From: Candidatus Oxydemutatoraceae bacterium
Lineage (GTDB): Bacteria; Pseudomonadota; Gammaproteobacteria; Poriferisulfidales; Oxydemutatoraceae
NCBI GenBank assembly: GCA_965218975.1
Contig: OZ244717.1
Coordinates: 224,001 to 288,000, forward strand
Reading direction: 5' to 3'
DNA length: 64,000 nt
Shown: piece by piece, positions 785 to 56,615 of the stretch
How the letters are laid out: the number at the start of each line of letters is the position of its first letter
Numbering within the stretch: the first letter of the stretch is position 1
Notes under the pieces: generated by a model
What the model was told of the DNA's origin: nothing
Databases searched by the model: none
The model's input: only the letters and a program-made list of their open reading frames with translations
Made by a program: the position numbers and the translations under genes

Positions 785-1510
785 CTAAAGCAACGCGGAA
801 AGTTGCTTTTTGACGTCATCCGTATCGGTAGCGGCAGTGATTTCGCGGGCCCGGTCGGCACCCGTCAGTCGGCCTTGCCGCAAAATCAACACACGATCAT
901 CAGGATGCACTTCGTCAAGCAGGTGTGTGGTCCACAATACGGATAGTCCATTTGCGCATAAAGCACGTGTATGCTCCATGATGATACTGCGGCTGCGCAC
1001 GTCCAATCCGACGGTTGGTTCGTCCAGAATCAACAGGTTCGGATATTGGACCAGCGCACGGACAATTTCGACACGCCGCACCTGTCCGCCGCTGAGGCGT
1101 CTGATCTTGGTGTGCAACTGGTCCCGCATTTCAAGTCTTTCGAGCTCCCGGACAGTGCGCTGCCGGGTTACGGCTGCTGGCAGGCCATACAGATTGGCCG
1201 AGTACCTGATGTTCTGCCACACCGTCAGATCAATATCAAGCGAACGCTGCTGGAACACCACACCGATTTGGCGCAACGCCTCGGACGGCTGTTTCGCCAT
1301 ATCGTAACCATTGATGGTAATGCGCCCGTGTCGGGCATGGTAAAGTCCGGTGAGCAAAGAAAATAAGGTCGTTTTGCCGGCGCCGTTGTGTCCCAGCAAA
1401 ATGGCGAAGTCGCCACGTTCAATGGCGAAACCAACTGAACTGAGAGCTTCGAGCTTCCCGTAATTATAGCTGAGGTCGCTGACCGCAAGCGGCAAAGAGT
1501 CAGTTGTCAC
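785..1510 (-). CDS. ABC transporter ATP-binding protein, PQQ-ADH-associated
   Basis: Walker A GHNGAGKTT, signature LSGGQ, Walker B LILDEPT; operon context. Confidence 0.9.
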   Translation of the reverse strand: MTTDSLPLAVSDLSYNYGKLEALSSVGFAIERGDFAILLGHNGAGKTTLFSLLTGLYHARHGRITINGYDMAKQPSEALRQIGVVFQQRSLDIDLTVWQNIRYSANLYGLPAAVTRQRTVRELERLEMRDQLHTKIRRLSGGQVRRVEIVRALVQYPNLLILDEPTVGLDVRSRSIIMEHTRALCANGLSVLWTTHLLDEVHPDDRVLILRQGRLTGADRAREITAATDTDDVKKQLSALL

Positions 1511-2531
1511 GTGCGGCTATTCCCCACGGATAACGCCCTACCGCAACAGATTTGACAACACGTAATTTTTCTACGTCGATGACGGAAACATCATTGCTCA
1601 CCCCGTTGGTAGTGTAAAGCCTGCGTTCGCCGACATCAAAACCAAGCTGCCACACACGTTGCCCGACCAGCAAGTATTTTTCGACCTCGAATGTTTTTGC
1701 ATCAATCACGGCAACTCGGCTTGCCGGCCCCAGCGCTACGAAGGCCCGCTTGCCGTCACTGGTCAGACGTATCCCCACGGGTTGAATCGCTTCCGACCTG
1801 ATTCCGGGTACCGCAAACGAAATCTCCCGGATGATCTTGCGGGTGGCGTTGTCAATCACATGAACGGTGCCGCCTATTTCAGCGGAAACCCAGACTTGTT
1901 TACCGTCGGCGGTAAACTCGGCAAAACGCGGACGCTCACCGACCAGCACGTTGTCGGTTTTTTTATAGGTAGCGGTATCAATAAAGTGCGCCATGTTCGT
2001 CGTCTCGGAAGTATTGACCAGTGTTTTCCCATCAGGACTAACAGCCATGCCTTCGGGCTCAACACCCACCGGAATTTCTTTGGTGATCTTTTTGCTTGAG
2101 ATATCGAGAATGGTCACAATGTTGTCGTCTTCGTTGGCAACATATATTAAATTGCCGTCAGGGGAAAGCGCCATCAGTTCCGGGTCGGGCCCGGAAGGAA
2201 GAATCTCGATCAGCTTGTGGGTATTAAGATCGAGCACTTCGACCCGATCATCGTCACTGGCACAAATATAAAGATGTTGCTGATCTTTACTGATCACAAT
2301 ACCGCGCGGGCGCTGCCCAACCTTAATCGTATCGACAACTTCGAGTCGGTCGCTGTCAATCACGGAGATCGTGTTGTCTTTCTCGTTGGAAACGTAGATA
2401 TTGTACGATAAAGCGCTGGTGGTATATAAACCGCAGGCGGCAAACAACACAACCCCGGACAGGGTCGGCCGAATTTGACGATTGTTCACCGGGATCTTTC
2501 TGTTCATATTTTTTATCGACTGAGGACGCAT
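1500..2531 (-). CDS. YVTN-type beta-propeller protein, PQQ-dependent catabolism-associated
   Basis: Signal peptide followed by repeated YVSNE/YVANE/VGQRPRGI/VGVEPEGMAVSPDG blades; exact start uncertain. Confidence 0.88.
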   Translation of the reverse strand: MRPQSIKNMNRKIPVNNRQIRPTLSGVVLFAACGLYTTSALSYNIYVSNEKDNTISVIDSDRLEVVDTIKVGQRPRGIVISKDQQHLYICASDDDRVEVLDLNTHKLIEILPSGPDPELMALSPDGNLIYVANEDDNIVTILDISSKKITKEIPVGVEPEGMAVSPDGKTLVNTSETTNMAHFIDTATYKKTDNVLVGERPRFAEFTADGKQVWVSAEIGGTVHVIDNATRKIIREISFAVPGIRSEAIQPVGIRLTSDGKRAFVALGPASRVAVIDAKTFEVEKYLLVGQRVWQLGFDVGERRLYTTNGVSNDVSVIDVEKLRVVKSVAVGRYPWGIAARDN

Positions 2532-12360: not shown

Positions 12361-13289
12361 TGTACGATGCCACCCTAGTGGAATTCTTGAAGAGCTTCTA
12401 GGGAAGCGTTCGGCAGTAACATTCGGACCGGTGCTTTCTGTCCGTTGTCGGCATGAGGGCGGTGCAGGGTGAGACGCGCCCGGAAAACCGAACGGTTTTC
12501 AGCGGCAAACGACCCGACAAGGACGTCGGGCTGGTGCTCATTGACAGAACCAAGTCTCGTCATGGACGAGCAGGGTAAGACGCGCCCGGAAAACCGAACG
12601 GTTTTCAGCGGCGAACGACCCGACAAGGACGTCGGGGCTGGAGCTTGTTGACAGAACCCAATCGCGTCATGGGTGAGACGCGCCCGGAAAACCAATTGGT
12701 TTTCAGCGGTGAACGACCCGACAAGGACGTCGGGGCTGGAGCTTGTTGACAGAACCCAGTCCGTCATGGACGACAGGCACTTTGCCGACAATCCGGCACA
12801 ATCCGCCGACAACCCACCAACAAACACAAAACGGTTTCACAACCGGTCATTGAATGCTTGCATATCGGTAAATAGCAGGTCTTCCGCATGATCGATACAA
12901 TCTTCTTGGACCGTGCTGACAACGCACAATCGTATCCAGGGCGATGCAATGCCCAGGATTGCCGGATACTGTGCTTTGAAGTAACTCAGCTTGTACGTGC
13001 GACGATGCTTGAACGGTCGTGCAAACTGCTCAACCCTCCCTGCCGATAGGCCAGGGGCGTCATGCATACAGGGTCGAACGACTGACCTTGAATGCGTTCG
13101 GGAGTTACAACTATCCCAAAATGAGGGCATCATATTTCTGTTGAAGCTTAGAGTGCTCATGAGCCTCCATTTTTGAAGCAAAATTGGCTCATATAGAAAC
13201 CTTTGATGCGGTGGCCGATGTGCTGGTATTGCATGCCGGTCACCTTTTTATTGACGTCCAAGAATCCAGTATGTATCTGGGCACGTACA
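12361..13289 (-). mobile_element. Internally deleted IS481-family relic carrying 3 structured repeats
   Basis: Ends TGTACGATGCCACCCTA (12361) and TGTACGTGCCCAGATAC (13289, minus strand); fragments MQYQHIGHRIKGFY, FKAQYP, VQEDCIDH..FNDRL; frameshifted. Confidence 0.8.
12465..12770 (-). repeat. 3 copies of the ~97-nt multi-hairpin repeat
   Basis: Three copies of GAGACGCGCCCGGAAAACC..GGTTTTCAGCGG..ACGACCCGACAAGGACGTCGGG..TTGACAGAACC. Confidence 0.95.
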
Positions 13290-15619: not shown

Positions 15620-17182
15620 ATGACGGTAAAGCGAACGAAGAGCAGTAAAACTGTTGAGGAAGAAACACAACCTGATTGGGAAAAGTCACCCGGGCGGGTG
15701 AGCCCAAGAGAGCGGCAACCGTTTATTACAGGCGTTGATTCTTTCGCCTTTGAAGCCCCCGTTCAAAGAGCAGGCGGTTCAACCAAGACGATGGGGCGAA
15801 AAACGCAGCCCGCAGGAAGAATCGGAGGTTCGGAGAATATGCGCATCGCAGACGGTCGTCGTGCTGTTGATAACAGGGCTGTCAAGCGACACTCTGAACG
15901 GACCGACTCATGGCGGGCATCAATCAATCGTTTGAAGTCGGAAGCGGGCCTGCCAGATCAGGCGGCTTGTCGCGCCTCAAATGAGTTAAAGAGTCGGTCA
16001 AGCGGAAGAATTTCGGCGCTATGGTTATTATTGCTGATAGCGATCGTCGGCATCGGGCCTTGGCAATCGGGTATTTGCGATTCATTGTCCGAACCCGGTC
16101 AATCAGTCAAACAAGCGCAATGGCTGCTGAAAGAACTTGGCTACGACGTTGTGCCGGACGGTATCTTAGGCCCCCGGACGAAAGCCGTCATCCGCAATTA
16201 CGAACGCGAAAACAATATGGTTGAGACCGGGCAAGTCACTGTCGAATTAATTGCATCGCTGCAAGCAAAGCCTAAACAAAAAGGCAAAGTATTCCGGGAT
16301 TGCGCGGAATGCCCGGAAATGATCGTGATTCCGGCCGGCTCATACCGGATGGGTTCGCCTGCGCATGAGGTGGGGCGCTATAGTGATGAAGGCCCGGTCC
16401 ATCGCGTGACGATCGCAAAGCCGTTTGCAGTAGGACGTTATGAAGTCATGCGCGCCGAATTCGCCCATTTTGCGGATGAGGTGGGATTTTTGCAGGAGGA
16501 CGAAAATTGCGATTGGTTGAATCCGCTGGAGCCGGAGTTCCGTCAAGGCGAGCGCGATCCTGTGGTATGCGTGATGGGATTTTGGCCGGAGGACGAAAAT
16601 TGCGATTGGTTGAATCCGCTGGAGCCGGAGTTCCGTCAAGGCGAGCGCGATCCTGTGGTATGCGTGGATTGGAACGACGCGCAGGCATATGCAGAGTGGC
16701 TGTCAAGGAAGACCGGAAAGGCGTACCGGCTGTTGAGTGAATCGGAATGGGAGTATGCGGCACGCGGAGGGACGAGCACGGCACGATACTGGGGGGAGCA
16801 CGAGGATGAGCAGTGCCGGTATGCGAACGGGATAGATGCGGCTTATAAGAAACATAACCCTAGTTTGAAGTATCCAGTAGCTCCATGTAACGACGGCCAT
16901 GTGTATACATCTCCGGCGGGTTCGTTCTTACCGAACGAGTACGGTTTGTACGACATGCTCGGGAATGTCAATGAGTGGGTAGAAGACTGCTGGAATGATG
17001 ATTATGCCGCAGCGCCGTCCGATGGCAGTGCATGGTTGCAGGGTGATTGTTCCGCTCGTATGTTCCGCGGCGGGTCGTGGGGCGACATTCCGAGGTATCT
17101 GCGTTCTGCGATCCGCTACGCGTACACCACCGGAGACCGGGACGACTATATCGGTTTTCGAGTCGCTAGGACATTGGATTGA
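15620..17182 (+). CDS. Membrane-anchored PG-binding + FGE-sulfatase (SUMF1 / C-type lectin fold) protein
   Basis: RBS AGGAGG; TM segment; PG-binding motif LKELGYDVVPDGILGPRTKAVIRNYE; FRDCAECPEM, RLLSESEWEYAARGG, GLYDMLGNVNEW, RGGSW...GFRVAR. Confidence 0.9.
   Translation: MTVKRTKSSKTVEEETQPDWEKSPGRVSPRERQPFITGVDSFAFEAPVQRAGGSTKTMGRKTQPAGRIGGSENMRIADGRRAVDNRAVKRHSERTDSWRASINRLKSEAGLPDQAACRASNELKSRSSGRISALWLLLLIAIVGIGPWQSGICDSLSEPGQSVKQAQWLLKELGYDVVPDGILGPRTKAVIRNYERENNMVETGQVTVELIASLQAKPKQKGKVFRDCAECPEMIVIPAGSYRMGSPAHEVGRYSDEGPVHRVTIAKPFAVGRYEVMRAEFAHFADEVGFLQEDENCDWLNPLEPEFRQGERDPVVCVMGFWPEDENCDWLNPLEPEFRQGERDPVVCVDWNDAQAYAEWLSRKTGKAYRLLSESEWEYAARGGTSTARYWGEHEDEQCRYANGIDAAYKKHNPSLKYPVAPCNDGHVYTSPAGSFLPNEYGLYDMLGNVNEWVEDCWNDDYAAAPSDGSAWLQGDCSARMFRGGSWGDIPRYLRSAIRYAYTTGDRDDYIGFRVARTLD
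16495..16666 (+). repeat. In-frame tandem duplication, period 93 bp (31 aa)
   Basis: GGAGGACGAAAATTGC...GTATGCGTG is identical at 16495 and 16588 (EDENCDWLNPLEPEFRQGERDPVVCV twice). Confidence 0.95.
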
Positions 17183-17506
17183 ATCTTGAAGCTTGGTATC
17201 TTGCGATGGGTGACGGAGCCTTGCCCCGGCTGATTTCTCTGCAGCTGAGGATAGTTCGTTGAGGCAGGCTTCGTGTAGATGCGGGCATGCCTTGGCGCTG
17301 AGTATTTTCATCTTGAGCGAGTAGTCGCATAACGCCGGATACATACGGGACTCACGGCTTAATCTAAATCGGTTTGCCGTTTCGGGGGAAACTACGGACC
17401 GGATGTCACCGGGCGCATTCTCGGCAGCCCTAAGCTCTTCGAACCGATGAAACCGTTTTGTGTTTGTTGGCGGATTGTGCCGGATTGTCGGCAAAGTGCC
17501 TGTCAT

Positions 17507-18194
17507 CCATGCCGCGACTAGGTTCTGTCAACAAGCCCCAGCCCCGACGTCCATGTCGGGTCGTTCGCCGCTGAAAAGCAATTGCTTTTCCGGGCGCGTC
17601 TCACCCTGACGAGACTGGGTTCTGTCAACAAGCCCCAGCCTCGACGTCCTTGTCGGGTCGTTCACCGCTGAAAACCAATTGGTTTTCCGGGCGCGTCTCA
17701 TCCATGCCGCGACTGGGTTCTGTCAACAAGCCCCAGCCCAGACGTCCATGTCGGGTCGTTCGCCGCTGAAAAGCAATTGCTTTTCCGGGCGCGTCTCACC
17801 CTGACGAGACTGGGTTCTGTCAACAAGCCCCAGCCTCGACGTCCTTGTCGGGTCGTTCACCGCTGAAAACCAATTGGTTTTCCGGGCGCGTCTCATCCAT
17901 GCCGCGACTGGGTTCTGTCAACAAGCCCCAGCCCAGACGTCCATGTCGGGTCGTTCGCCGCTGAAAAGCAATTGCTTTTCCGGGCGCGTCTCACCCTGAC
18001 GAGACTGGGTTCTGTCAACAAGCCCCAGCCCCGACGTCCTTGTCGGGTCGTTCACCGCTGAAAACCAATTGGTTTTCCGGGCGCGTCTCACCCATAACGA
18101 GACTTGGTTCTGTCAATGAGCGCCAGCCTCGACGTCCTTATCAGGCCGTTCGCCGCTGAAAACCGATCGGTTTTCCGGGCGCGTTTCATCCCTG
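17507..18194 (+). repeat. Tandem array of 7 structured 97/98-nt units (A-B-A-B-A-B-C), no spacers
   Basis: GGTTCTGTCAA starts at 17521, 17618, 17716, 17813, 17911, 18008 and 18106. Confidence 0.97.
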
Positions 18195-18539
18195 CCCGAG
18201 TGTCCGCACGATTGCGTGCCTGATCGCGGATGCGCCGAATAAAATGCGCTGTATTCCGCAGCGGCTGAATGCCAAAGGACAAACAAAACGACTGTTCAAG
18301 CACCGTTGCAGGGTACGCAAGCCGAAACACTTCAAAGCATAGTATCCGGGGCATTGCATCGCCCTGGATACGATTGTGCGTTATCAGCACGGCCGCATTC
18401 CTGCGCCTGGCAGAATTTCGGCAACAGTAAAGTCTTTGAGCTAATGAAACCATTCGTGATTGTATAGTTGACACAAGTACGAATACATGGTACCAATACT
18501 GCACTAAAATAGTCAATGGGATAGGCCGCTTGACTACAA

Positions 18540-19785: not shown

Positions 19786-20007
19786 ATGGCTATAGGTAAA
19801 TACTTGAGCCTCGAAGAAGCTCGCAAAAAGAATTTGCTGGATCGTTTTGCCAAGGAACATCCATCCGTAGCGGACGGGCGTTTCTGGCCTTTGCTTAATT
19901 CTATAATTAAAGGGAAGCAATCAAGTCAGGAAACATCTGTTCAGGCTTGTCCCGATAGTTGTAGCGAAACTCAAACTCCTTCAGATACTTCCGAAGATGC
20001 TTCTTAG
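19786..20007 (+). CDS. Small hypothetical protein converging on the IS1595 transposase
   Basis: MAIGKYLSLEEARKKNLLDRFAKEH; its 3' end overlaps the transposase 3' end on the opposite strand. Confidence 0.45.
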   Translation: MAIGKYLSLEEARKKNLLDRFAKEHPSVADGRFWPLLNSIIKGKQSSQETSVQACPDSCSETQTPSDTSEDAS

Positions 20008-20764
20008 ACACATGGATATGTGTACCACGAATGCTCAACTTAAGGCGTGCCCAAAAACCTTCAATGCTATTGACATGAGAGCCACCGCTTACCCATTTGC
20101 CAGCACCATGATTGACCCTCTTATGCTCAAACCCTTCTTTGTCCAGCCCGGAGTAAGAACGAAGCTCATCCGTATGGACTGTGCTTCCCTGCTCAACATT
20201 TTCCTTAATGATCGACTGCAAAGTGCGCTTTTTGACGTTCGGAACAATTTTGGTCATTACATCCCCATCCCTGTCCAACATGCCAAAGGCTATAGCCTTG
20301 TTCGGAGCACCGCGACCGCGCTTTCCGCCAGAAGTCTTACCGCCAATATAGGTTTCGTCAGCTTCAACATGCCCGTCAAGAGGGTTTTCACCGTCCGTAT
20401 CAGACATGTGCTCACGTATCTTGTGAGCCATTCTCAAAGCAGTTGGATAGGCAACTCCAAGCTGGCGTTGCAGTTCCAAGGCGGGCACTCCGTGTCTTGT
20501 GGTGGTGAACAAGTAAATAGCATAGAACCACTTCTGCAAGGGGGTATGGGAGTTTTCAAAGATCGTTCCTACCATCGGATGAATTTGATGTCCGCACCAA
20601 GCACACCCATAAGCAGTGTCACGTTTGACTCTGTGAAACTTCCCGTGCTTCCCGCACTTGGGGCAGTCCATAGTCTCCCCATGCTGCTTGTGCATCAGGA
20701 ACTCAAGACAGGCTTCATCATCCGGGAACTGTTTCATAAACTCTTGAATTGTTGTGGGTTTCAT
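19907..20764 (-). CDS. IS1595-family (ISXO2-like DDE) transposase
   Basis: Zn ribbon CPKCG..CAWCG, HTH, EADETYIGG, HTDE, VNH, NSIEGFW, EFEFRYN; ORF intact. Confidence 0.95.
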   Translation of the reverse strand: MKPTTIQEFMKQFPDDEACLEFLMHKQHGETMDCPKCGKHGKFHRVKRDTAYGCAWCGHQIHPMVGTIFENSHTPLQKWFYAIYLFTTTRHGVPALELQRQLGVAYPTALRMAHKIREHMSDTDGENPLDGHVEADETYIGGKTSGGKRGRGAPNKAIAFGMLDRDGDVMTKIVPNVKKRTLQSIIKENVEQGSTVHTDELRSYSGLDKEGFEHKRVNHGAGKWVSGGSHVNSIEGFWARLKLSIRGTHIHVSKKHLRKYLKEFEFRYNYRDKPEQMFPDLIASL

Positions 20765-20898
20765 GGTGTATCTCCTATCGTTGAAGAAATATTACCATGA
20801 ATACTTACTTGTGTCAACTATATAATCACGAAACCATTTTGTGTTTGCTGCCGGATTGTCGGCGGATTGTGCCGGATTGTCGGCAAAGTGCCTGTCAC

Positions 20899-21000
20899 CC
20901 ATGACGAGACTTGGTTCTGTCAATAAACCCCAGCCTCGACGTCCTTGTCAGGTCGTTCGCCGCTGAAAAGCAATTGCTTTTCCGGGCGCGGCTCACCCTG
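20899..21000 (+). repeat. Single copy of the ~97-nt multi-hairpin repeat
   Basis: CCATGACGAGACTTGGTTCTGTCAA...GAAAAGCAATTGCTTTTC...CTCACCCTG. Confidence 0.92.
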
Positions 21001-21235
21001 CAAGAATCCCATTTAAGGTGGCATCGTACAAAGTGTAGAGTTTCTCAATCAGTCATTGTACAATGCAAGGTTTATATTCGTGGTCGTACCACGAATAGAA
21101 CATAAAGCACAAGTCCCTATGTTATTATTTCGTTCGTAATGAAGATTGCTGTTTTAGCATATAAATTATTGCTTATACATAACTTCGGCATTACATGATG
21201 CCTCTTTATAAGTACACTGATGCCCGTTTTTTAGG

Positions 21236-26058: not shown

Positions 26059-26254
26059 TTGCTCTTAATCGTATCCGGTTTTGTTGCTGTACATCTATAA
26101 GCTTTAAGTTTCGCTGTTGCGTTTTTGCTTCGACGGCTAAATAAAAAAGATGAATACTTTTGTATATCTTCTTAATGCGGCTTCCAATCCATGTGTCCGC
26201 TCAAGGCGTGGTTTCGTCTGTGGAATGCGATTCTTACCCCTTGAGCGTTTCAAC

Positions 26255-26464
26255 CGTACTCTGCAAAAAGACTTTGCGGACCACAATGAGGAACTATTGT
26301 TTACGAATTCGGATAAATTCAACGAGCGTTTATGGTCATATTCGGAGTGGTACAATATGCGCCGACTGCATGCCGACAACGGACAGAAAGCACCGATCCG
26401 AATGTTACTGCCGGGCGCTTCCCTCAAAGCTCTTTAAAAATCCCATTTAGGGTGGCATCGTACA
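26255..26464 (+). mobile_element. IS481-family 3' relic without the structured repeat
   Basis: LERFNRTLQKDF..FNERLWSYSEWYNMRRLH, then right end CCCATTTAGGGTGGCATCGTACA. Confidence 0.75.
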
Positions 26465-51409: not shown

Positions 51410-51903
51410 GAGATCAGATATGCAGTATCAACACATTGGCCACCGCATCACCTGTCTGCGTGGAACGCACAGGCAGATATGATGCCCTATTATTTTGGAA
51501 GAGTTGTAGCTCCCGAACGCATTCAAGGTCGGTCGCAGTACTTTGTACCGCTGGCGGCGGCGGACCTGGCCGCAATTGATTCAGCGTGAAATCAAACGTC
51601 TGCGCCAAGATCATTTGAATCTCGGCAGCAGTAAAATCTTTGAGCTAATGAAACCGTTTTGTGTTTGGTGGCGATGCTCGGCACAGTGTTTGTCATCCAT
51701 GACGAGACTTGGTTCTGTCAACAAGCCCCAGCCCCGACGTCCTTGTCGGGTCGTTCGCCGCTGAAAACCGATCGGTTTTCCGGGCGCGTCTCACCCTGCA
51801 CCGCCCTCATGCCGGCAACGGACAGAAAGCACCGATCCGAATGTTACTGCCGAACGCTTCCCTCAAAGCACTTCAAAAATCCCATTTAGGATGGCATCGT
51901 ACA
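51410..51903 (+). mobile_element. Deleted IS481-family relic carrying one structured repeat (51697-51798)
   Basis: MQYQHIGHR start, EIKRLRQDHLNLGSSKI, one repeat unit, right end GGATGGCATCGTACA. Confidence 0.8.
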
Positions 51904-54608: not shown

Positions 54609-54960
54609 TCAGTTTCCTCCGGGGCGCGACTTGCTCGGAAGCGGGAACGGAGCTTCGTCCCATTTCAAACCTACGCTACGGTAGGTCCTGTTGACGTCCG
54701 CACTCGCGCCGGATCCGCCACCCTGTCCCGCTTGATAGACCCGGTCGAGATTCAGTAGAACGCCGCCGCTTCGCTCCAGCCCGTACACCGTGGCGCGCTT
54801 GCTCTGCGGCTGTGCGATACGCGCCAGTACCAGCTCGCGCAGGATGCGATTGGCCGCCATACGGCGCGCACCCAACACCTAGTTCCATCCGAGGTGCGAA
54901 TAAATCTGCGCGAACGCCTCGTGCACCCCAAGCGTCAGACGCGTTTCCTCACGGCATTTA
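54609..54960 (-). pseudogene. IS1634-like transposase relic
   Basis: LRELVLARIAQPQSKRATVYGLERSGGVLLNLDRVYQ; fused to unrelated pieces. Confidence 0.55.
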
Positions 54961-54989
54961 GCCAGATCCGCCGATGCCTCTTGCACGGC

Positions 54990-55161
54990 GCTTTGCCGCG
55001 GTCATGCAAGGCGCTGAGCCCAGTGCGGCGATAACGCTGGCGCCAGCGGTACAAAGTACTGCGACCGACCTTGAATACGTTCGGGAGTTATAACCTCCCA
55101 AAATAATAGGGCAGTATATTTCTGTTGAAGCTTAGAATGCTCATGAGCCTCCATTATTGAA
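54990..55161 (-). mobile_element. 5' fragment of a further IS481 relic, cut by the adjacent copy
   Basis: Closely similar to 56330-56500 (GAGGCTCATGAGC..AAATATACTGCCCTATTATTTT..). Confidence 0.7.
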
Positions 55162-55162
55162 G

Positions 55163-56615
55163 TATACGATGCCACCCTAAATGGGATTTTTGAAGCGCTT
55201 CGAGAGAAGCGTTCGACAGTAACATTCGGGGATCGGTGTTTTCTGTCCGTTGCCGACATGAGGGCGGTGCGGGGTGAGACGCGCCCGGAAAACCAATTGG
55301 TTTTCAGCGGTGAACGACCCGACAAGGACGTCGGGGCTGGGGCTTGTTGACAGAACCCAGTCGCGTCATGGACGACAGGCACTTTACCGACAATCCGGCA
55401 CAATCCGCCGACAATCCGGCACAATCCGCCGACAATTCGCACAATCCACCACCAAACTACAAAATGGTTTCATAACCGGTCATTGAATGCTTCCGTATCG
55501 GTAAATAGCAGGTCTTCTGCATGATCGATACAATCTTCTTGGACGGTGCGGCTGAAGCGCTTGATGTGCGCGTTCATTTTCGGACACTTGGGATAGGTCA
55601 GCCACTGCTCAATCACGGGCGATTCCCGGATGAGCCGGGCAAACTGTCCTTGAAACTCACTACCGCCGTCCGTCAAGATATATTTTACCGGTGGCGGTAG
55701 CACCGCCAGGGTCAAGCGCAGAAATGCGGCAGCACTGCGGCTGTTACAGCAGTTGGTTGCCACTGCCGTTGCCATGCGGGTATAGACATCAATGGCCGTT
55801 AAGACGGTGCGGCGCATCCCGTGCTGATAACGCACAATTGTATCTAGGGCGATGCAATGCTCCGGATACTGTGCTTTGAAGTCTTTCGGCTTGTGTGCCC
55901 TGCAACGGCGCTTAAACGGTCGTTTTGTTTGTCCTTTGGCATTCGTGCGCTGCGGAACACGGCGCATTTTATCCGGCGCATCCGCGGTCAGGCGCGCAAT
56001 CGTGCGGACACTCGGGCAGGGTGAGACGCGCCCGGAAAACCGATCGGTTTTCAGCGGCGAACGACCCGACAAGGACGTCGGGGCTAGGGCTTGTTGACAG
56101 AACCAAGTCTCGTCATGGGTGAGACGCGCCCGGAAAACCAATTGGTTTTCAGCGGCGAACGACCCGACAAGGACGTCGGGGCTGGGGCTTGTTGACAGAA
56201 CCCAGTCGCGTCATGGACGACAGGCACTTTGCCGACAATCCGGCACAATCCGCCGACAATCCGGCAACAAGCGCAAAACGGTTTCACACTGAATCGGTTG
56301 GCTAGGTCCGTCGGCGCCTCTTGCGCGGCGCTCTGGTGCGGCCATGCAAGGCGCTGAACCCAATGCGGCGATAGCGCTAGCGCCAACAGCACTAAAGTAC
56401 TGCGACCGACCTTAAATGCGTTCGGGAGTTACAACCCTCCTAAAATAATAGGGCAGCATATTTCTGTTGAAGTTTAGAGCGCTCATGAGCCTCCATTCTT
56501 GAAGCTAAATTGGCTCATATAGAAACCTTTGATGCGGTGGCCGATGTGTTGATATTGCATATCGGTCACCTTTTTGAGTTAAGCCGTGAGTCCCATACGT
56601 ATCTGGCACTATACA
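55163..56615 (-). mobile_element. Longest IS481-family relic, with both ends and 3 structured repeats (55270-55371, 56017-56216)
   Basis: Ends TATACGATGCCACCCTA and TGTATAGTGCCAGATAC; core IALDT..ILTDGGSEF..KMNAHIKRFSRT; the catalytic Glu appears replaced by Lys. Confidence 0.85.

Follow-up and report, generated by a model that had tools for sequence, protein, structure and literature searches.

Tandem 97/98-nt repeats in relics of an IS481-family element: probably a structured repeat of foreign origin lodged in an insertion sequence derivative

The repeat units that recur in this stretch of a gammaproteobacterial chromosome are probably copies of a foreign structured repeat that became nested in a non-autonomous IS481 derivative, was amplified with it and was then expanded locally. 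The initial annotation of the window (the whole 64,000-nt stretch of DNA analysed here) had left three options for the units, namely a structured non-coding RNA array, a protein-binding or recombination site, or a REP/MITE-like element that moves along with a non-autonomous derivative of IS481, and it is the last of these that fits. About 300 puzzling repeats would thereby be explained as a foreign hairpin element nested in, and amplified by, an insertion sequence, and the case would show one selfish element riding another during genome decay. The hairpins are inherited from a parent family, and nothing indicates a use for them in this cell.

Repeat units in relics of an IS481-family element

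The genome (G000) is a single contig of 2,081,000 bp with 47.7% G+C, a symbiont-type chromosome. Genome-wide blastn with the unit returned 323 matches, 303 of them near full length and falling into 96 clusters, and units occupy about 1.4% of the genome. The window contains the following features of the units and their surroundings.

17507..18194 (+): tandem array, A-B-A-B-A-B followed by a divergent last unit with CCGATCGG core
17416..17506 (+): left arm and 'head' of the module (repeat families D14/D15/D2; HEAD feature map; alignment A3)
18190..18393 (+): IS481-family (subfamily A) transposase fragment, residues ~127-193 of reference P0003 (tblastn)
12361..12841 (-): relic end with head (12762-12841), three units (12470-12769) and IS right-end tail/IRR
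20830..21030 (+): head, one unit (20899-20995, GCAATTGC palindrome) and partial IS right end
51642..51903 (+): head fragment, one unit (51697-51793) and IS right end (IRR)
54938..56615 (-): fullest relic of the window, with IRL, head, two units, transposase fragment, head, one unit and IRR
26243..26464 (+): IS481-A C-terminal fragment (residues 278-347) and IRR, without a unit

Seven head-to-tail units of 97/98 nt had been read at 17507-18194, and both TRF and repeat spacing bear this out. At 17503/17516-18194 TRF reports 7.0 copies of period 97 (89% match) and 3.5 copies of period 195 (95% match); the unit starts are spaced 97/98/97/98/97/98, and both inner 195-nt A-B dimers are 100% identical to the 195-nt query. 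Eight further units were found at the loci where they had been placed before, bringing the window to 15 in total. The head at 17416..17506 carries short repeats, CGGATTGT(G/C), and terminates in ...GGCAAAGTGCCTGTCAT; homology links its final ~20 nt to helix 1, in the 5' portion of the foreign element described below (alignment A3). Directly 3' of the array, the transposase fragment at 18190..18393 forms the right flank typical of site 1, one of three fixed insertion sites in the transposase gene, as in the site-1 junction of the best-kept relic of the genome. The same fragment pairs as inverted repeat I3 with 55819-56021. As the left flank of the array is of the site-2 type and the right flank of the site-1 type, modules must have recombined with one another. 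In four short-read DNA runs, contigs end within the array and none crosses all of it.

Among the other loci, the relic end at 12361..12841 corresponds to the genome cluster 236361-236798. The fullest relic holds its paired units at 56022-56216 and its single unit at 55275-55371; the transposase fragment between them (residues 127-310, 55452-56018) has an empty site 2, and an additional N-terminal fragment follows. A head repeat of 10-11 nt, CCGGATTGT..., was seen at 55387-55447, 20852-20884 and 56231-56263, in 1 to about 6 copies depending on the relic. The single unit at 20899 is adjoined by an apparently intact IS1595-family transposase frame (19907-20764, minus strand; 285 aa with DDE_Tnp_IS1595 and zinc ribbon). 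Elsewhere in the window, a 93-bp in-frame tandem duplication of 31 codons (16482-16666; 2.0 copies, 97% match) falls within a 520-aa frame with peptidoglycan-binding and FGE-sulfatase domains (15620-17182). Between 52001 and 54000 the G+C content falls sharply to 0.33, compared with about 0.48 elsewhere, with positive GC skew; this stretch may be a foreign island.

The IS481 debris that had been noticed beside the units is real. Across the genome there are 118 fragments matching NF033577 (IS481). None is full length and the top score of 90 bits falls short of the cut-off of 224, so that the intact linked IS481 gene proposed as a check does not exist in this genome. An IS inverted repeat or transposase fragment lies at most 400 nt away in 89 of 99 unit-bearing feature clusters, and unit and transposase fragment share the same orientation in 620 pairs, with 29 pairs opposed. 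About half of the 10 remaining clusters have clear IS-A DNA at a relaxed threshold; the other orphan arrays (three to five of the 10) show similarity at the level of the head or of ~20 nt of IS only, and one shows none. In tblastn, a 354-aa relative covers residues 1-347 across the relics. The closest proteins found for the subfamily-A transposase are only 54-56% identical, and intact IS481 elements occur in relatives of the same family. In the best relic, IRL reads TGTACAGTGCCAGATACATGTGGGATT and the complement of IRR reads TGTACGATGCCACTCTAAATGGGATT, giving inverted ends that begin TGTAC...; IRL has 48 and IRR 88 matches genome-wide. By eye, no obvious repeat borders the one relic whose flanks were compared. 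Two or more other IS481 subfamilies occur in the genome as unit-free relics (1204402-1204926, 589179-589382, 1542522-1543049 and 558801-559822), whose site-1 region is like that of intact relatives.

The best-kept relic (genome positions 1496650-1497970) has three module inserts, after about residues 96, 230 and 307 of the 354-aa reference. The usual order in the relics is IRL, N-terminal fragment, head and units, middle fragment, head and units, C-terminal fragment, head and units, and IRR. Site 2 is native in two copies, namely the window fragment at 55452-56018 and one other. Site 3 is native in about 5 copies and filled in about 36, all with exactly the same breakpoints. In filled copies the module takes the place of native sequence, roughly 40 nt of it at site 2 and 21 nt at site 3, and the module junctions show no target duplication, only short and imperfect homologies. 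Compared with native IS-A DNA, the module reaches a best E of 0.79, a level that shuffled sequences surpass (0.05), and for want of significant similarity it is therefore foreign to the IS. That head and unit are merely diverged native IS coding sequence was rejected on this ground, and also because a relic with native site 1 exists. A set of candidates for an 'empty site 1' was discarded, as they belonged to a second IS481 subfamily or came from tblastn reading through a unit.

Unit numbers have also changed locally. Identity between adjacent units is 0.943, compared with 0.923 between units paired at random, and the copies are probably still growing in number by unequal crossover. Lost mismatch repair or RecA was rejected as a cause of slippage, with recA, mutS and mutL all present and intact. 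Two rearranged loci outside the window deserve mention. Inverted unit arrays at 149162-149699 (-) and 153063-153845 (+) surround about 3.3 kb and have a common outer flank, CCCATTATTCACTGG...; one of the two has a 152-nt period made up of head and partial unit. In the degenerate units at 405341-405486 and 416541-416880, the 18-bp palindrome is interrupted by an insert of ~27 nt that starts with CCTGCCTGTG, finishes with CAGACA(A/G)G and seems to be a smaller insertion lodged within the unit.

Fold and spread of the parent repeat family

From the window alone, each unit had been drawn as a cloverleaf with a closing stem and three arms, one of them an 18-bp palindrome whose paired changes seemed to keep its symmetry while the surrounding transposase sequence decayed. 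The three perfect palindrome variants were confirmed genome-wide, with 138 copies of the CCGATCGG core, 82 of CCAATTGG and 4 of GCAATTGC, and a perfect palindrome is present in 224 of the 303 units. The cloverleaf itself was not recovered: RNAalifold on 13 window units gave no closing stem, a different arm 1 and a covariation term of only -0.49 kcal/mol. Only 72% of cells are paired in the proposed arm 1 and 87% in the closing stem, and single-unit folds of the plus strand have z-scores of -1.4 to -1.8. Covariation within the genome fails as well, since arm 2 (CCCGAC/GTCGGG) shows 107 one-sided and 0 compensatory changes. Nor are the units kept while the transposase decays, with a mean pairwise identity of 0.91 for units as against 0.90-0.93 for transposase fragments; the IS left end stands at 0.89 and the right end at 0.90.

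What looked like paired substitution in the palindrome has a simpler origin. Its two switched columns are associated with r2 of 0.74, and other close but unpaired site pairs reach 0.61, 0.49 and 0.43. Among the eight commonest classes, the first units of multi-unit runs have 38 AATT against 13 GATC cores, and the last units 47 GATC against 6 AATT. The palindrome switch is therefore a single old paralogue difference that was copied with the element, and the two common variants represent positional paralogues of long standing, namely the opening and the closing unit of a module. Other origins and uses were also considered. A host operator was rejected, as the palindrome never occurs outside units in the genome, and a tRNA origin was rejected as ARAGORN places no tRNA on an element, either in the window region or in five foreign loci. 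Integron attC-like core sites are absent by inspection, and no promoter-like or terminator-like sites were predicted inside the units.

Matches to the unit were found at some distance from its host. Exact matches to a 24-nt core of the second hairpin exist in three MAGs, titled Pseudohongiella or Pseudomonadales, and in a single metagenome contig. Other searches gave little: no exact match to the 23-nt core of the unit turned up in the genome, metagenome or viral collections, the unit gave a single weak blastn match of 38 nt among 40 relatives, and model R1 found no match in 52 genomes of the order. On a metagenome contig (L102, 1453-1580, minus strand), an element between convergent protease and peptidase genes has only the second hairpin and its flanks (about 36 nt) in common with the unit, contains another long palindrome and scores 19.5 bits with R1, the sister model of R2 (below). 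The copies with the 24-nt core can be aligned (A3) over the entire unit and the final ~20 nt of the head, with an identity of about 65-70% by eye, and helix 5, an 11-nt hairpin, is missing from all six window copies that were aligned. Model R2, built without local copies, gives window units 40-70 bits; those of the array score 50-68 bits, and the top match in the window, at 51642..51903, scores 69.7 bits. An nhmmer profile of 18 foreign copies alone makes 314 matches in the genome, all within known units. Helices 1, 3, 4 and the closing helix, the TCC loops, CGTTCG and a terminal CTCACCC characterize the family, to which the window units belong. The unit is thus a shortened copy of a widespread, apparently uncatalogued structured repeat of Gammaproteobacteria.

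The parent element is ~125 nt long, has five helices and is a dispersed repeat in the three MAGs named above. Blastn finds at least 85, 41 and 45 matches in these carrier genomes, with tandem runs of period ~134. Its five-helix structure was written by hand from the alignment of the 18 foreign copies, on which R2 was then built. In these copies 98.7% of cells are paired and two-sided changes occur in 9 of 31 pairs; none of 500 shuffles reaches the covariation score, and slid partners give at most 0.10 compared with 0.23. Compensatory pairs number 20 of 31 in 12 copies from seven other genomes, in an alignment that was fitted to the model and is biased towards the structure. The claim of a selected fold consequently divides in two, in that it does not hold within this genome and does hold, by the family alignments, for the wider family in other genomes.

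In a sample of other Gammaproteobacteria with one genome per family, 24 of the 150 have an R2 match, or 23 of 149 if the unpublished G335 is set aside, and in the order of carrier G053 the model matches 10 of 141, the search centre being counted. Few candidates were scored per genome in this survey, so its copy numbers are lower bounds. Cultured carriers among the matches listed by a pattern scan include Luteimonas, Lysobacter, Pseudoxanthomonas, Thermomonas and Xanthomonas bonasiae, and further Nevskia soli, Solimonas, Sinimarinibacterium and others. No description of such a repeat was found by a literature search of main texts, including one by sequence motif. In Rfam 15 the window has no match at gathering score, narK appearing in the array at E = 8 only, and 12 foreign loci have none at E <= 0.1. 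Blastn of the family in E. coli genomes and plasmids gave no match, and the coordinates of the copies in G053 show no replication-strand bias obvious by eye. Roughly one sixth of the gammaproteobacterial families in the sample have the repeat, with cultured Luteimonas, Lysobacter, Pseudoxanthomonas, Nevskia and Solimonas among its carriers, and it offers a testable system for how small repeats without an enzyme move and for whether transcript 3' ends are shaped by them.

Together, these data suggest a course of four steps. As the alignments show, the unit and the last ~20 nt of the head belong to the widespread five-helix family, the local copies having no helix 5. The local copies lie within relics of one IS481 element, subfamily A, in which a left arm, a head and one or two units have replaced native codons at three fixed sites of the transposase gene. 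The junctions are identical among copies, and therefore the module-bearing IS multiplied as a whole. With no intact subfamily-A transposase in the genome and the nearest proteins so distant, we infer mobilisation in trans: the derivative would have been non-autonomous and moved by intact copies since lost. All parts of the element now differ by about 9%. Finally, unit numbers would have changed by unequal crossover or slippage and by short-homology joins, and the (A-B)x3+C array of the window is probably a recent case of such a change.

Insertion of the parent family and alternative explanations

Outside this genome, family copies are flanked by ordinary housekeeping genes and not by transposases. 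No Y1/RAYT gene (PF01797) was matched in the genome or in the carriers G053-G055, where controls were detected, and no IS110 gene was found in the genome; the linked HUH/RAYT or IS110 gene that had been suggested as a partner is accordingly missing here. Combining element strands with Pfam-supported flanking frames, the CTCACCC end faces the 3' end of the upstream gene in 25 cases (two of which are one locus in two genomes) and the orientation is opposite in 4, with one more copy after a tRNA. Ahead of gene starts neither orientation clearly prevails (14 against 10). For 10 of the 25, the TGA stop codon of the gene coincides with the TGA of GGGTGAG, the complement of the element end. Two comparisons of empty and filled sites between related genomes agree: CTCACCC was already there in the empty site, and the insert sits directly on its 5' side with no clean duplication. 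One and the same site can be empty, singly filled or multiply filled in different genomes. These two comparisons are a lead that points to insertion next to the fixed heptamer GGGTGAG. The element ends, GT.CATGCC... and ...CCGGG.CTCACCC, are not mutual inverted copies. Tandem joins of the form CTCACCC|AT occur in Pseudohongiella and in the window array and resemble the CATCC|AT of the first hairpin loop. Neighbouring genes also figure in three single loci: in L146 and L145 (both in G307), inverted element pairs overlap by about 12 nt between convergent or divergent genes, each copy being oriented relative to its nearer gene, and in L130 a tRNA-Ser gene is followed, after 9 nt, by a copy (1501-1726, minus strand) that shares its orientation.

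It is a tentative and rather unlikely reading of these patterns that the parent family represents a new class of structure-dependent, non-autonomous mobile element without a recognisable transposase partner, which would insert one to a few bases past GGGTGAG and often right behind a TGA stop. Both conserved hairpin loops and the 3' end have a recurring CA(T/C)CC motif, which also forms the join of tandem copies in two unrelated genomes. A single-strand nuclease may cut at this motif, in a rolling-circle or peel-and-paste route, and if so, such cutting would explain the spacer-less arrays. Besides or instead of this, the gene-sense strand could lend 3' untranslated regions two CsrA-type GGA hairpins.

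The module might itself be an active, site-specific small element homing into three IS481-A sites, a parasite of a parasite that inactivates the transposase. Its right end (...GCGCGTCTCACC) is constant over at least seven classes of right flank, its left end (AACCGTTTTG...) recurs at all three sites, relics vary in their combination of filled and empty sites, and the family elsewhere seems to insert beside a fixed heptamer. We nevertheless regard homing as improbable. A single junction in every filled site-3 copy points to one event, later copied. Moreover, native bases were replaced with no duplication, the GGGTGAG target is missing at the three IS sites, copies outside IS relics were not found in the genome, and neither a Y1/RAYT nor an IS110 enzyme is present in it. 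A nested repeat multiplied with its IS481 derivative is the reading we prefer.

A function at the RNA level fares no better. One proposal is that the arrays are transcribed into a structured non-coding RNA of the symbiont, for example one processed to ~97 nt. Conservation of the units is, however, no higher than that of the dead DNA around them, and helix 3 (arm 2) has collected only pair-breaking changes. No promoter- or terminator-like site lies in the units, Rfam has no match and the palindrome is absent outside the units. In favour of the proposal, a selected fold and conserved unpaired motifs are features of the parent family, four of whose five helices persist in the units, compensatory differences from foreign copies are seen in helix 1, the closing helix and helix 4, and the units stand in the sense orientation of the transposase gene. 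On balance such arrays seem very improbable, and for a local non-coding RNA role of the units no evidence was seen at the level of sequence. The other RNA-level proposal, which we hold to be barely credible, is that the element is a CsrA/RsmA binding module on the minus strand, acting in 3' untranslated regions in the parent family and as sponges in the arrays. A precedent exists in RsmU, a small RNA of Xanthomonas derived from the comEA 3' UTR that is reported to act as an RsmA sponge (PMC7694677). The minus strand reads CANGGANG in the loops of both conserved hairpins; 114 of 124 family copies have at least one such motif on this strand and 82 at least two, the plus strand has one in a single copy of the 124, and 92 of 1360 shuffles have one. 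The transcript of the upstream gene would carry the minus strand in 25 cases against 4, and csrA is present in the genome. The orientation bias is, however, more simply attributed to the overlap of the GGGTGAG target with stop codons. The local units face the opposite way relative to the transposase gene and have both motifs only in the head-adjacent unit, wobble pairs favour the plus strand (194 against 38, mostly via two pairs), and no Csr/Rsm model of Rfam matches. The comEA 3' UTR of a Xanthomonas, the presumed RsmU locus, is not a family member: downstream of comEA in X. bonasiae (L303) the best R2 score is 6.8 bits (E 0.19), and by eye the GGA-rich sequence there is unrelated to the element, so that identity with RsmU was rejected. 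A CsrA role of the element thus appears unlikely.

Comparison with known systems

The carrier resembles the IS481 family in its fragments of an IS481-type DDE transposase and its inverted ends beginning TGTAC.... It differs in that no copy is intact and the gene is broken at three fixed sites by the module, the unit sequence itself not being IS481. The nested repeat invites comparison with other small elements. REP/BIME and REPIN elements of Enterobacteria and Pseudomonas are moved by RAYT transposases. Like these, the family consists of high-copy intergenic hairpin repeats, some in mosaic or tandem clusters, with an orientation bias relative to the neighbouring gene. REP and REPIN are, however, built on a palindrome of 20-40 nt, whereas the family unit is 97-129 nt long with four or five helices and conserved unpaired motifs. 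In addition, the Y1/RAYT gene is missing from this genome and from three carrier genomes, and the copies here are confined to IS relics.

Non-autonomous derivatives of IS200/IS605 are palindrome-associated, with hairpin-bearing asymmetric ends, a fixed short target and no terminal inverted repeats. The family likewise has asymmetric hairpin ends without terminal inverted repeats and, to judge from the two comparisons, may insert beside a fixed short target with no evident duplication, and repeated insertion at one target could yield arrays in both. Its apparent target is the heptamer GGGTGAG instead of a tetra- or pentanucleotide, and no Y1 transposase is detectable. Finally, MITEs are reported from reduced symbiont genomes, for example that of Cardinium (PMC9769881), and the present repeat resembles them in its small size, its lack of coding sequence and its expansion alongside insertion sequences in a bacterium confined to a host. 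Unlike a MITE, the element has neither terminal inverted repeats nor a target duplication, and unlike the MITEs of symbionts it is not a deletion derivative of its carrier IS but a foreign element nested within it.
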